From Candidatus Woesearchaeota archaeon (GTDB lineage Archaea; Nanobdellota; Nanobdellia; SCGC-AAA011-G17; JACPIM01): a stretch of DNA of 64,000 bases. A program made the translations under genes and the position numbers. The stretch is from the NCBI GenBank assembly GCA_964513145.1, contig CAZELK010000006.1, positions 10,081-74,080 of the forward strand, written 5' to 3'. Below the pieces are notes generated by a model. It had not been told where the DNA came from, searched no databases, and worked only from the letters and a program-made list of their open reading frames with translations. Below, one piece after another: positions 2,438 to 33,337 of the stretch (positions within the stretch are counted from its first letter, which is position 1; the number at the start of each line of letters is the position of its first letter).

Positions 2438-3748
2438 TTACGGTGTTAATCTTTCTGGATCGCGGGGGAGCAATATTGCTTCACGTACATTTTCCAGATT
2501 TAACATTCTCTGGATTAACCTGTCAAAACCAATACCTGCTCCGCCATGAGGGGGAGTTCCGTATTTGAAAATATTAGCATAAAAAGACATTTTATCTAGA
2601 TCTATTCCCTTTTCTTTAGACTGCTCTTTTAAAATATTATAATTATTTTCTCTTTGTGAGCCTGAAGAAATTTCTACACCTTTGTAAACTAAATCAAATG
2701 ATTTTGTAACTTTTTTATTTAAACTTGAACGCATTTGATAAAATGGTTTTTTCTCCCAAGGATATAGTGTAATAAAAACCATATCTGAATCATATTTTTC
2801 TTTTATTATCTCGCCAATTAATTTTTCGCCCTCTGAATCTAAATCTTCATTTTCTTTTAATTTTTTTCCTTTTTTCTCTATTAGTTTTTTTGCTTCTTCC
2901 AATGTAATTCTTGGGACTTGTTTTGGAATATCAATTTTTACATTTAACAAATCTAATTCTTCTTTGCATTTTTCTTTTACACTTGCCAGAACAAATTTCA
3001 TTAACTCCTCAAGAACATCCATAACGTCGTTTTCATCTTTAATAAAACCCATTTCAATATCTATACCAGTAAATTCTGTTAAATGCCTTGTTGTATGGGA
3101 TTTTTCTGCCCTGAAAACTTCACCAATCTCATAGACCCTTTCCATGCCTGAAACTACGAACATCTGCTTGTAAACTTGCGGACTTTGTGTTAGGAATGCT
3201 TCTTTACCAAAATAATCAATACTAAATTGTTCAGCTCCAGATTCTACACCACCAGCTGTTATTTTTGGAGTATTAATAGAAATAAATCCTTTTTCCTCGA
3301 AAAAATTAGAAACTATATTGAAAACTTTTGATCTTACCTTGAATATTGCTGAAATTTGCGGTCTTCTTATATCCAAAAATCTATAGTCTAATCTTTTATC
3401 TATTAATGTTTTTGATTTCTCTGATGTGTCTATAGGCAGAGGAGTTAGTGATTCTGATAAAATTTTTAAATCTTCAACTGAAATTTCATAACCTTTTTTT
3501 GCTTCTTTGCTTGTCTTTACCTTTCCTTCGATTTCAACAACAGATTCTATTGATATTTTGTGAATTTTATTGAACAAATTTTCATTTATATTTTCTTTAT
3601 GAGAAACACATTGAATTAAACCAGTTTTATCTCTTAATAAAATAAACTGGACTTTACCTAAAGACCTTATTTCAGAAACCCATCCTTTTACAAGGACTTT
3701 TTTATCATTTAATTTTTCATTTATTTCCGATATAAAAATACGATCCAT
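2438..3748 (-). CDS. aspS: Aspartyl-tRNA synthetase, archaeal type
   Basis: N-terminal OB fold (GWVSEIRSLGKVQFILLRD); AFLTQSPQVYKQ, motif 2 FRAEKSHTTRHLTEF, motif 3 PPHGGAGIGFDRL, C-terminal PRDPERLTP. Confidence 0.95.
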   Translation of the reverse strand: MDRIFISEINEKLNDKKVLVKGWVSEIRSLGKVQFILLRDKTGLIQCVSHKENINENLFNKIHKISIESVVEIEGKVKTSKEAKKGYEISVEDLKILSESLTPLPIDTSEKSKTLIDKRLDYRFLDIRRPQISAIFKVRSKVFNIVSNFFEEKGFISINTPKITAGGVESGAEQFSIDYFGKEAFLTQSPQVYKQMFVVSGMERVYEIGEVFRAEKSHTTRHLTEFTGIDIEMGFIKDENDVMDVLEELMKFVLASVKEKCKEELDLLNVKIDIPKQVPRITLEEAKKLIEKKGKKLKENEDLDSEGEKLIGEIIKEKYDSDMVFITLYPWEKKPFYQMRSSLNKKVTKSFDLVYKGVEISSGSQRENNYNILKEQSKEKGIDLDKMSFYANIFKYGTPPHGGAGIGFDRLIQRMLNLENVREAILLPRDPERLTP

Positions 3749-5124: not shown

Positions 5125-6549
5125 TTATTTTAATAATTTTTTTAATAAATCAGAAAGTTTTTTTCCGTCAATTGAGCCTCTAAATGTTTTCATTGCTTCG
5201 CCCATTAAAGCTGAAAATGAAGCTCCTTTATTTTTAATTATTAATTCTTTTAATTTTATTTCTACTTCTTTTACATTAATTTGTTTATATTTATTTAAAT
5301 CAATGTGCTTGCCTTGGGCTAAGTCCAATAATATCTCTTTTGCAGCTTCTCTTGTTATTCTTTTTTCTTGGAGATTTTTAAAAATAAACTCAAAATCTTT
5401 TTGTGATAATTTTTCTGGGCTGACATTAAATCTTCTTCTTATTTCTTTTGGATATTCAACCAATAACTCAGCCATCAAACTTGGATTTAGACAGTATTTT
5501 TCAGAATAATAGTCAAAAGGTATGCTTTCTTCCAAAATTTCTCTTGCAAGCTGTTCGTTTATTTTATATTTTTTCTCGAAATTTATTGCTCTTTCTGTTA
5601 GTAATTCTGGTATTTCAATTTGAGACAATAACTCTTTTGTTATTCTTATTAGAACTATATCTGTCTCAACATACATTCTGGAGCCTGTTGGCATTGGTCT
5701 TAAAAATGTTGATGTGAAATCCGGCTCAACTTTTCTAACTTCTGCTTTTAATTCTTTTTTATTTTTTATATTTTCTAATTGCCTATTTATTTCATTTTCT
5801 ATTGTTTTTGGAATTCCTCTTAAATCCTGAAAACCTTTTAATTCTACTCTTGGATGGTCTTTAATACTTACATTCACATCCTGTCTTATTGAACCCAATC
5901 CAGATTTAAATTTTCCTGTTGATTTTAATATCATCCCCAAATATTCAGCAATTTCTTTTGCATGTTCGGGATCTTTTATACTTGAATCTGTTGCTATTTC
6001 TATTAATGGAATTCCTAGTCTGTCTAAATTATAAATAACTGATTTTTCATCTTGTTTTATTTTTTTAGCCGCTTCTTCTTCTAAACAAATTGTGGGAATT
6101 TTTACTTCCCCTTTTGAAGTTTTTATAGAACCATTAATTGCGATTAAAGTAGTTCTTTGGAAACCAGAAATATTAGAACCGTCAACTATAACCTTTCTCA
6201 TTATTTGAATTTCATCAATTATTTTTGCATTTGTTAAAATAGCAACCTGTAAAGCAACTTTTAGTGCTTCTTTATTTAATTTTTCGGGCGGGGATTCGTC
6301 CAAATCAACTAAACAAGTTGTGTCTTTATTAATTTCATATATAAAGATTTTATCTTTTTGTGTTTCATATAAAGCAGCTATATCTATTCCCCCTAATTCT
6401 CCGGCAGAAGCTTTTAATTTTCTTTTAATTGTATGGTCTACTTTTTCTGTATTTGTCAAAGAAGGACATTCACAAAATAATTTATGAGTTTCAATCTGCC
6501 TGTGAATTTCTAGACCAATACGTAAACCTAATTCTTTATAATTTAGCAT
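5125..6549 (-). CDS. gatE: Glu-tRNA(Gln) amidotransferase subunit E, short form
   Basis: LGLRIGLEIHRQ, KLFCECP, RKVIVDGSNISGFQRT, LDRLGIPLIEIAT, GSIRQDVNVSI, RMYVETD. Confidence 0.93.
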   Translation of the reverse strand: MLNYKELGLRIGLEIHRQIETHKLFCECPSLTNTEKVDHTIKRKLKASAGELGGIDIAALYETQKDKIFIYEINKDTTCLVDLDESPPEKLNKEALKVALQVAILTNAKIIDEIQIMRKVIVDGSNISGFQRTTLIAINGSIKTSKGEVKIPTICLEEEAAKKIKQDEKSVIYNLDRLGIPLIEIATDSSIKDPEHAKEIAEYLGMILKSTGKFKSGLGSIRQDVNVSIKDHPRVELKGFQDLRGIPKTIENEINRQLENIKNKKELKAEVRKVEPDFTSTFLRPMPTGSRMYVETDIVLIRITKELLSQIEIPELLTERAINFEKKYKINEQLAREILEESIPFDYYSEKYCLNPSLMAELLVEYPKEIRRRFNVSPEKLSQKDFEFIFKNLQEKRITREAAKEILLDLAQGKHIDLNKYKQINVKEVEIKLKELIIKNKGASFSALMGEAMKTFRGSIDGKKLSDLLKKLLK

Positions 6550-31662: not shown

Positions 31663-31965
31663 TTGGCAGAAGAGATATTCAACCATAAGAATATTGATGA
31701 AAATGGAAATATTACAGAAATTAAAATATTAAAAATTCCGAAAACAACTGATAACCCTGAAGGTATTTCATATTCGCTTGTTTATATAAAAAATGATAAG
31801 CGCATAATTGGTTATGACAATTTTGGCGGACATAAAATAAATACAAATTGCCACCATAAACATATTAAAAATAGAATTGAAATTTATGAATTTATAGATG
31901 AATGGAAATTAATACAAGATTTTATGGATGATATTAAAAAAATAAATAAAGGAGTTATAAAATGA
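31663..31965 (+). CDS. DUF6516-family putative toxin
   Basis: PEGISYSLVY...RIIGYDN...HHKH motif; TTG start; 4-bp overlap with a wHTH partner. Confidence 0.75.
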   Translation: MAEEIFNHKNIDENGNITEIKILKIPKTTDNPEGISYSLVYIKNDKRIIGYDNFGGHKINTNCHHKHIKNRIEIYEFIDEWKLIQDFMDDIKKINKGVIK

Positions 31966-32336
31966 AAATCAAAAACATAAAAATTACTATAAATGACAGA
32001 AAACAAGCTTTGAATGAATTCGCCCATACATTAGCAAGAGCTCGAGAAGGTGAAATAATCTACAAACATAAAGAAATTTCATTTCAAGATGTTTATACAT
32101 TAAGAAAATTTCTAACTGAAAAAAGAATAGAATTACTACATATAATAAAACATTATAATCCAGAATCAATGTATGAATTAGCAAAAATTGTTAATAGAGA
32201 TTTAAAAAGCATAACTACAGATATATCTATTTTAAAAGATTTAAATCTAGTAAGTCTAGAAAAAATTAAAGAAAAAAGAATAAAGGTCAAACCCAAAGTT
32301 GAATTTAATAAAATAAATGTTGAAATTACAATATAA
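31962..32336 (+). CDS. HVO_A0114-like wHTH putative antitoxin
   Basis: LRKFLTEKRIELLHIIK..PESMYELAKIVNRDLKSITTDISILKDLNLV. Confidence 0.8.
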   Translation: MKIKNIKITINDRKQALNEFAHTLARAREGEIIYKHKEISFQDVYTLRKFLTEKRIELLHIIKHYNPESMYELAKIVNRDLKSITTDISILKDLNLVSLEKIKEKRIKVKPKVEFNKINVEITI

Positions 32337-32479: not shown

Positions 32480-33337
32480 TTATTTTTTATTTTTTTCGCG
32501 CGCGAGACGTACCCCGAGCCCGCCATTCGAGAGATCAGGATTGCCATTGCAGCCCAGGTAAGCCCAGTCAGCAACAGCACCGAACCAAGCGACTCTACAA
32601 TCAACAGGATACCAATAATTAAAATCAGTTCCTTCTTTTGTTGGCATTCCCTGCTTATTAAAAGAACTTAATTCAACTTTACAGTCTTTCATTACACAAG
32701 TTTCTAGAGGTTCAGAATTTGTTGCTTCTAGTTTTTTACATTTAGTTCTATGATTGTAATTTAAATGTAAATTTCCATTTTTATCTTCGAATTTGGCATC
32801 TAACCATTCTGCCCTATAAGGATCTCTTACTTCTGTAATATCCAAATAAAGAGTTTGCAAATCTGATTTTGATATTTTATTTCCCAATCCATCTTCTGCT
32901 TTACCTGATTTTAATAATAAAAGAAAATCTGCAAATTCTCTTAAGTTTAACATTCTTGCATCTTGCTTATGGGCTTCTTTATGAGTTTCATACCAATTAT
33001 TTCGGTGTAATATTCTTTCTTTAGCAACATATAAACTATGAGAAGGCATGAAAACATAATCTGCCAAATTAGCTTCTTGAACTGAAGTTATTTTTTCTAG
33101 TTTTTTCCCAATCATCTCTTGTTCTGTTACTTCTTCGGACTTTTCTTCTTGTTTTTTGTCTTTCTTTGATTTTTCTAGCTGAATTTCTTGTTCAATATTG
33201 TCTGTTAAATATAATCCAGAACCAACTATTTCATTTAATTTAAATAGATAATCTTTCGAGAATTTATCAGAATCTGATATTTCTTTGCATATTTTCTCTA
33301 GTTCACTTTTCCAAGCTTCAAATGATTCAAAAACCAT
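32480..33337 (-). CDS. Putative DGR target-like protein (C-type lectin-like C-terminus)
   Basis: Ends RVAWFGAVADWAYLGCNGNPDLSNGGLGVRLAR; no signal peptide. Confidence 0.7.
   Translation of the reverse strand: MVFESFEAWKSELEKICKEISDSDKFSKDYLFKLNEIVGSGLYLTDNIEQEIQLEKSKKDKKQEEKSEEVTEQEMIGKKLEKITSVQEANLADYVFMPSHSLYVAKERILHRNNWYETHKEAHKQDARMLNLREFADFLLLLKSGKAEDGLGNKISKSDLQTLYLDITEVRDPYRAEWLDAKFEDKNGNLHLNYNHRTKCKKLEATNSEPLETCVMKDCKVELSSFNKQGMPTKEGTDFNYWYPVDCRVAWFGAVADWAYLGCNGNPDLSNGGLGVRLAREKNKK
32498..32593 (-). other. Candidate DGR variable region
   Basis: 60 of 96 nt are G/C in an otherwise very AT-rich gene; spaced NNY codons; GC-rich CTCGGGGTACGTCTCGCGCGC 3-prime end. Confidence 0.6.

Follow-up and report, generated by a model that had tools for sequence, protein, structure and literature searches.

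[quoted passage not shown] 2015, PMC4372165). In these nanoarchaeal systems the IMH reads TGGGGT and the IMH* reads TGGAAT (Paul et al. 2015, PMC4372165). Remote DGR targets have also been described elsewhere, as for the DGR of Treponema denticola; a remote target is assigned by its match to a template within the same genome, from which it shows only A-to-N differences (Wu et al. 2018, PMC5758913).

Here a gene of this general kind is analysed that lies within a 64,000-nt stretch of the genome of a tiny woesearchaeotal archaeon from groundwater (the stretch is termed here the window; the genome, G000). The G000 assembly comprises 977,603 nt (0.98 Mb) in 18 contigs with N-filled gaps, and is 98.82% complete with 0.27% contamination. 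As with the partial DGRs of DUSEL4 OTU1, a DPANN archaeon carries an A-mutagenised variable region and a GGGGT-type IMH with no RT on site. Unlike G000, however, the DUSEL4 OTU1 genome retained four complete DGRs able to act in trans; two further differences are that congeners of G000 document loss, in the form of an RT stub and a truncated template, and that a toxin-antitoxin-like pair fills the slot. Like the remote targets of Wu et al., the G000 targets are located far from any RT and have a variable region of the C-type-lectin/FGE type; the same-genome template match by which those targets were assigned cannot be applied to G000 because its assembly holds no template. Orphan DGR targets are already known from archaea, and the G000 case belongs to the partial-DGR kind. 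What is added here is a genome in which neither RT nor template is found, a set of congeners that catch the loss, and a named target family. For small symbiotic archaea, the case is relevant to the question whether hypermutation is a permanent capacity or one that is called upon in bursts, with the outcome frozen afterwards.

The features discussed below are collected in Table 1. On the sequence comparisons given here, the gene in question is a genuine DGR target. It was first singled out in an earlier note, made from the letters of the window, for the composition of its end: 60 G+C among the 96 nt of its last 32 sense codons (32498-32593, minus strand). This count is exact (A10 C26 G34 T26), and the translation given there for these codons is also correct, with EKNKK and the stop codon coming next. 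In a 100-nt profile G+C peaks at 0.60 at the tail, with values of 0.19-0.33 on either side; GC3 within the 96 nt is 0.59 versus 0.15 across the remaining gene; and A makes up 43% of the gene body and 12% of the GC-rich segment. Genome-wide, only 3 of 975,893 segments of 96 nt contain 60 G+C or more, namely the segment just described, the tail of a paralogue (G000:C6:79898-79995), and a stretch of contig C8 that by eye resembles tRNA genes. The GC-rich tail is real and far from chance.

Table 1. Coordinates of the target gene and its parts, of neighbouring genes in the window, and of insert-bearing template stretches (entered as template insert) and poly-G runs at loci of relatives
Feature	Coordinates	Strand	Basis or remark
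TumE toxin gene	31663-31965	+	Pfam PF20126, 1.8e-11
HVO_A0114-type HTH gene	31962-32336	+	Pfam PF25212, 3e-20
DGR-type target gene	32480..33337	-	ORF, 285 aa (stop codon included)
N-terminal helical region, specific to this copy (residues 1-84)	33086..33337	-	AlphaFold2 model
Invariant scaffold of predicted C-type-lectin fold (residues 85-248)	32594..33085	-	AlphaFold2 model
Variable region (residues 249-276)	32510..32593	-	matches template repeats in relatives' cassettes
IMH-like motif CTCGGGGTACG	32508..32518	-	3' end of variable region
CG-rich palindrome TCGCGCGCGA, 10 nt	32496..32505	-	just 3' of variable region; read from sequence
Template insert	L033:6773-6797		outside window
Template insert	L014:146-167	-	outside window
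Template insert	L015:5886-5913	-	outside window
Template insert	L044:3122-3149		outside window
Template insert	L037:4224-4248		outside window
Template insert	L034:2575-2599	-	outside window
Template insert	L035:2252-2279	-	outside window
Template insert	L036:1270-1297	-	outside window
Template insert	L039:1155-1179		outside window
Template insert	L040:1710-1734		outside window
Template insert	L053:3689-3729		outside window
Poly-G run	L014:1999-2008		RT gene of relative
Poly-G run	L015:5453-5462		RT gene of relative
Poly-G run	L033:592-600		RT gene of relative
Poly-G run	L054:1469-1479		RT gene of relative
Poly-G run	L055:1182-1189		RT gene of relative
Poly-G run	L058:1112-1122		RT gene of relative

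The encoded protein has 56 homologues, found in the Woesearchaeota/Nanoarchaeia and all unnamed or 'hypothetical'; its own protein cluster has 1 member, on 1 contig. A Pfam-A hmmscan of the protein returned no family at E <= 1, so that neither the FGE-sulfatase nor the C-type lectin families were matched, and a profile built from the target family matches NKG2-D only, and weakly (E 0.004). The C-type-lectin fold that the earlier note had proposed to look for by structure prediction was nevertheless obtained, as a confident AlphaFold2 model based on an alignment of 37 homologues (pLDDT 87 overall and above 93 for residues 90-280), and the variable residues are placed in the last strands of this model. 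Its N-terminus consists of helices at residues 6-22 and 28-63 followed by a low-confidence linker (residues 67-80). A Foldseek search of the PDB with the model returned C-type lectin-like domains only, with weak scores (E >= 0.04), and VIA-align matches cover model residues 83-285. Compared with TaqVP (5vf4) and Mtd (1yu0), to which its sequence identity is 11-13%, the protein, whose structure here is a predicted one, has a helical N-terminus of its own, lacks the trimerisation or tail-fibre parts, and goes unseen by Pfam. Likeness to the FGE-sulfatase and C-type lectin families is at the level of fold only. For annotation, the case puts a name to a 'hypothetical' Woesearchaeota family, as proteins that DGRs regularly target and that have a binding site of lectin type.

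The N-terminus aligns poorly to the homologues, most of which have another, short leader at their start. The absence of a signal peptide stated in the earlier note agrees with a simple hydropathy scan, which reveals neither a hydrophobic N-terminal stretch nor a membrane segment (the maximum of the Kyte-Doolittle 19-residue means is 0.84 and the first is -0.39); the protein would hence be cytoplasmic and would bind its ligand there. The leader itself is seen within the G008:C16 locus of a relative, where two different targets share at their starts a 69-nt stretch that is 94% identical (L033:3137-3205 and 5758-5826), that includes the start codon, and that encodes MNLPDRLFGKSTSESYERV; a leader of this kind is present in many family members and absent from the window's gene.

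G000 encodes two paralogues of this protein. A blastn search of the whole genome with the tail finds one other copy, 37 kb away on the same contig and just beyond the end of the window, which forms the tail of a complete gene for a 251-aa protein (L001:9890-10645, minus strand). This gene shows the same GC spike, with a GC3 of 0.61 in the variable region versus 0.20 in the body. The third member, on G000:C5 (L003:5116-5802), is more distant (27-29% identity); it has kept the protein motif and has no GC enrichment (GC3 0.22). It adjoins a gene that by eye is of Fic type (HPFxDGNGR motif) and two ORFs that resemble an AbiE-type pair (L003:2596-5802), a setting reminiscent of a defence island. 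A scaffold gap of 100 N (L001:4081-4180; G000:C6:74081-74180) starts directly after the last base of the window, between the window's target gene and the gene of its 251-aa paralogue. A tree built from the scaffold without the variable region was tried for dating the duplication; it did not resolve, and hence provides no timing for that event.

The origin of the GC-rich tail becomes apparent from related genomes. Of the 60 relatives searched, 34 carry RVT_1 genes and 25 carry homologues of the window's protein, which often lie 1-4 kb from an RT; the family has several paralogues per genome. In at least ten relatives the target family adjoins RVT_1 genes, and members of it reside in cassettes with an RVT_1-type RT and a template in G008, G002, G043 (two), G060, G030, G024, G039, G034, G038, G040 and L053; 9 of the 26 genomes carrying a homologue have no RVT_1. 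The G008:C16 cassette runs: RT, ParE-like gene, AAA_5 ATPase, target a, 580-aa protein, target b, template; target b is 75% identical to the window's protein. The 4.8-kb contig G002:C17 bears RT, target and template in that order, and the part of the G008 layout that runs from target to template recurs on a metagenome contig, L053. What these three loci share with the window is an orthologous target (64-75% identity), the same variable-region scaffold, an IMH-like motif and the CG palindrome; what is found in them and not in G000 is an RT and, 200-330 nt downstream of the target, a template. The protein of about 580 aa between the two targets in G008 and L053 and the AAA_5 ATPase upstream in G008 were likewise searched for in G000, and neither was found.

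Within such cassettes, mismatches between a variable region and its cognate template fall almost entirely upon template adenines (17/19, 17/18 and 17/17 in three pairs). Once the G008 and G002 templates are spliced (see below), the window's variable region can be aligned to both with no gap. Measured in this way, that is, against the template of another genome rather than a cognate one, 15 of 23 mismatches to the G008 template occur at template A for the window's copy, and 14 of 21 for the second G000 copy. The non-A mismatches of the G000 variable regions to foreign templates number 7-9; the 8 found for the window's copy against the G008 template include two patches at which the G008 and G002 templates themselves disagree, and the remaining non-A mismatches would be explained if G000 had its own template with A at those patches. 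Set in one register, the two G000 variable regions show 20 differences over 86 positions, and 15 of these 20 coincide with an A of the G008 or the G002 template (Fisher p = 1.9e-5). Codon positions 1-2 hold 16 of the 20 differences; over the upstream 480 nt, in contrast, third codon positions are the largest class (36/71). Of the 57 sites with no A in either template, 5 differ between the two copies, versus 71 of 480 in the body. Both variable regions end in CTCGGGGTACG where relatives' templates read CTCGGAATAAC (i.e., CGGGGT vs CGGAAT), which is the distinction between IMH and IMH*. The adenine-biased variation whose absence the earlier note would have counted against a DGR is thus present, in that differences among homologues sit on the template adenines of relatives. 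The note also looked to this genome and its relatives for a template or RT: both are found beside homologues in related genomes, and neither is found in G000.

Two explanations that dispense with retrohoming can be weighed against these data. The first denies any link between the tail and a DGR and takes the tail for a patch gained by horizontal transfer, for a chimera of the assembly, or for an RNA structure under selection that overlaps the gene end; it fits the abruptness of the composition jump and the fact that G000 has no RT. It is barely conceivable: the tail occurs twice in G000 and in many genera and samples, always at the same protein position; it aligns to non-coding templates that adjoin RT genes; and its RNA folds no better than shuffles do (z +0.20) and matches no family in an Rfam search. 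The second, ordinary positive selection combined with gene conversion among lectin-like paralogues and with no retrohoming in this lineage, would draw on the several paralogues per genome and on the G000:C5 copy, which has the motif with low GC3. It is very improbable, since selection on the protein leaves unexplained a synonymous GC3 of 0.6 where genes have 0.15-0.20, and since it accounts neither for the coincidence of differences with template adenines nor for the closer agreement of non-A positions with foreign templates than is seen between gene bodies.

The palindrome just 3' of the variable region is identical in G008 target b and in the C1 homologue of G003 (a genome in G000's genus). 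At the matching position other archaeal targets have a GRA-loop hairpin. A DNA hairpin was sought there, and none is stable in the window's copy (z +1.3) or in G008 target b; because no stable hairpin forms as single-stranded DNA, a cis-element role for the palindrome can only be conjectured.

That the window holds no retroelement, as the earlier note stated, is borne out and extends to the whole assembly. An RVT_1 HMM gives no match in G000 (the same search being positive in control genomes, as in the relatives above), and the best tblastn E-value with six RT fragments from G002, G003 and G008 is 0.23. In blastn searches of G000, the variable region retrieves nothing beyond itself and its counterpart in the 251-aa paralogue, and no template, and three relatives' templates retrieve variable region 1 only; a covariance model (R1) of the template's characteristic insert has a best E of 0.49, with nothing significant. 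The template repeat expected in the genome of a DGR target is thus not detected in G000 by either blastn search or by model R1, and the genome-wide BLASTN that the earlier note had suggested, for a template differing at A near an RT, comes back empty. Because RT and template were both searched for and not found, the G000 case is not one of a complete DGR, and both variable regions are orphans. IMG/VR viral contigs yielded no virus-borne relative of the protein and no template.

Several candidate traces were examined and rejected. An A/GC-rich island at C5:43981-44100, considered as a template, is the Lys/Glu/Ala-rich tail of a ribosomal-protein-like ORF. A weak blastn match of window positions 32174-32240 to the RT region of G003 (70% over 67 nt, AT-rich, within the HVO_A0114 gene) was taken as compositional. 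Runs of G or C of at least 8 nt, considered as markers of a hidden RT, number three in G000 and by eye lie in a methyltransferase-like ORF, RtcB and MsrA. Five exact matches to the template motif in IMG/VR are chance matches, and the two that were inspected have phage-like contexts without an RT. G000:C17:242-331, considered as a cassette trace, is merely a 31-codon remnant of a small membrane-protein gene, with no RT after it. The remnant lies within L052:1-340(-), at the start of G000:C17, and the gene it derives from is a neighbour of the DGR cassette in both G003 and G001. After the remnant comes a stretch of about 120 nt that starts with GGGCCCA, ends with TGGGCCCA, and resembles an intron-rich tRNA; neither ARAGORN nor Rfam calls it.

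The history of the locus can be followed in the three other genomes of the genus, G001, G002 and G003. The window's neighbourhood (ABCE1, a slot, a zinc-finger gene, a membrane protein and SufC) is collinear with G003:C3. In G000 the slot contains the window's target and, between it and ABCE1, the TumE toxin and HVO_A0114-type HTH genes, which overlap, are convergent with the target gene, and are likely a toxin-antitoxin pair. In G003 the slot contains a small membrane-protein ORF, an RT, a template and a 352-aa target. Because this target belongs to another family (E 0.15 to the window's protein), the slot is common to both genomes and its cargo is not orthologous; the G003 template was also considered as the writer for the window's family and rejected, as it matches only its own cis target. 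G001 has no RVT_1; the end of its contig C16 (L050:3557-3952(-)) carries the small ORF and a template 91% identical to that of G003, with the RT reduced to about 28 codons in which the N-terminus is joined to the C-terminal end. Elsewhere in G001 (C20; L049:3588-3902) a 5'-truncated template of the G002 type lies between two genes that by eye are Fic-like. Contigs of both G001 and G002 end at this very slot. The G003 C1 homologue (241 aa) has a GC-rich, A-varied tail for which no matching template was found in G003 (86% complete). Four congeneric genomes hence display four states: in G003 a complete cassette together with variable regions without a matching template, in G002 one cassette, in G001 an RT stub and a truncated template, and in G000 two intact orphan variable regions. 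Taken together, the slot contents, the decay in G001 and the genomes without an RT imply that DGR cassettes are being gained, moved and destroyed within the genus.

Poly-G runs of 8-11 nt are present in RT genes of the taxonomic family of G000, the genomes themselves having about 29% GC. In G002, G003 and G008 the reading frame is broken at the run; in G009 the run lies inside an RT with an open frame of 401 aa. No run of this kind occurs at the RT loci that were retrieved from other families. The run may be an on/off switch operating by slippage, a programmed frameshift, or a homopolymer sequencing error.

The scheme that best accommodates the G000 locus is as follows. The gene would encode a soluble, ligand-binding protein composed of a helical N-terminus and a domain of C-type-lectin fold, with neither signal peptide nor membrane segment; the last 28 or so codons of the scaffold constitute a DGR variable region. 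An RT would once have copied the RNA of a template repeat, misreading adenines, and the resulting cDNA would have replaced the segment. Such rewriting would leave a segment that is GC-rich, poor in A, and variable at codon positions 1-2 between fixed residues; the 251-aa paralogue would have been written in the same manner. Both orphan variable regions would then most likely have been frozen, after recent loss of the cassette, into two fixed binding specificities. Recent loss of the RT/template cassette from G000 is the explanation to which we incline, by a modest degree, and it would be a real loss rather than an assembly gap. The earlier note had left open a remote target or a fossil, which is the right frame; its 'DGR elsewhere in the genome', however, finds no support in the assembly, and 'fossil' is favoured by the RT deletion in a congener and by the toxin-antitoxin-like pair within the slot.

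The principal alternative is that both variable regions are active remote targets, rewritten in trans by an RT/template cassette that exists in the cells and that went unassembled; the cassette could be hidden in an assembly gap or in a short contig left out of the bin, be carried by a mobile element, or be confined to part of the population. GC3 in the two orphan variable regions (0.59 and 0.61) is as high as in cassettes that still have a template and RT (0.57-0.60), with gene bodies at 0.15-0.20; this lack of decay implies either that the variable regions were stranded recently or that the cassette is unassembled. An unassembled cassette also fits the intact IMH-like motif and the low divergence of the two paralogues at non-A positions relative to the body. 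DGR loci, moreover, commonly break the assemblies of relatives: they often occur at contig ends or on small contigs, several RVT_1 matches beginning 175-700 nt from an end, and with 18 contigs and N-filled gaps a cassette of 2-3 kb could be absent from the G000 assembly. Other DGRs are known to have remote targets (Wu et al. 2018, PMC5758913), and the slippery G8-G11 runs in RT genes of the family suggest switchable expression. Against this stand the failure of the searches of a 98.8%-complete genome, contig ends included, to turn up a template, its motif or any piece of an RT, the lack of a virus-borne relative or template in IMG/VR, and the real deletion of an RT in congener G001. An active but unassembled cassette is accordingly a distinct possibility that falls short of an even chance.

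A more speculative, and rather unlikely, picture is that the RT/template unit is an accessory and switchable part of the gene pool of the population, present or switched on in only some cells (via G8-G11 slippage), which rewrites dispersed orphan targets in trans and is then lost or replaced, here by the toxin-antitoxin-like pair. If this were true, the undecayed GC3 would mean that both orphans are still serviced from outside the consensus genome. More generally, the contrast in composition (GC3 of 0.6 vs 0.15-0.20) offers a simple measure of the time since an orphan variable region was last rewritten.

The templates of this family in relatives contain an insert of 15-21 nt that is absent from the variable regions and that has the form CTCG-AAA-hairpin-CGAG-AxT, i.e., the shape of a relaxed bulge-helix-bulge (BHB) intron; a literature search found no published description of such inserts in DGR templates. 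Each 3-nt bulge of a bulge-helix-bulge motif is cut between its second and third nucleotides by the archaeal splicing endonuclease. Cuts predicted in this way leave 1 non-A mismatch over 15 template/variable-region pairs, versus 11-52 for most other cuts, and the predicted junction is the only near-adenine-only one that does not need the same A-to-T change in all 15 pairs. All variable regions, including both of those in G000, read CTCG-NN-T at the junction. The insert helices are paired in 94% of cells versus 33-59% in slid controls; because the helices are so conserved, their covariation is thin. The motif occurs 23 times, in 17 of 60 relatives, with 19 occurrences within 1.6 kb of an RT (as judged from RVT_1 matches), and EndA is present in 5 of 5 genomes checked. 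The G024 and G040 templates are without the insert, that of G024 reading as the spliced junction. All ten insert lengths measured are multiples of three. On the G043:C22 locus (L034) one template (2564-2665(-)) accompanies two variable regions (about 2953-3018(-) and 5448-5546(-)), one of which lacks the insert and the other of which keeps it in an A-mutated form that is 3 nt shorter; the latter probably lies in the gene encoding P0018, a protein longer by five residues at this place. This pair, together with the multiples of three, suggests that spliced and unspliced template RNA can both be homed, giving rise to variation in length.
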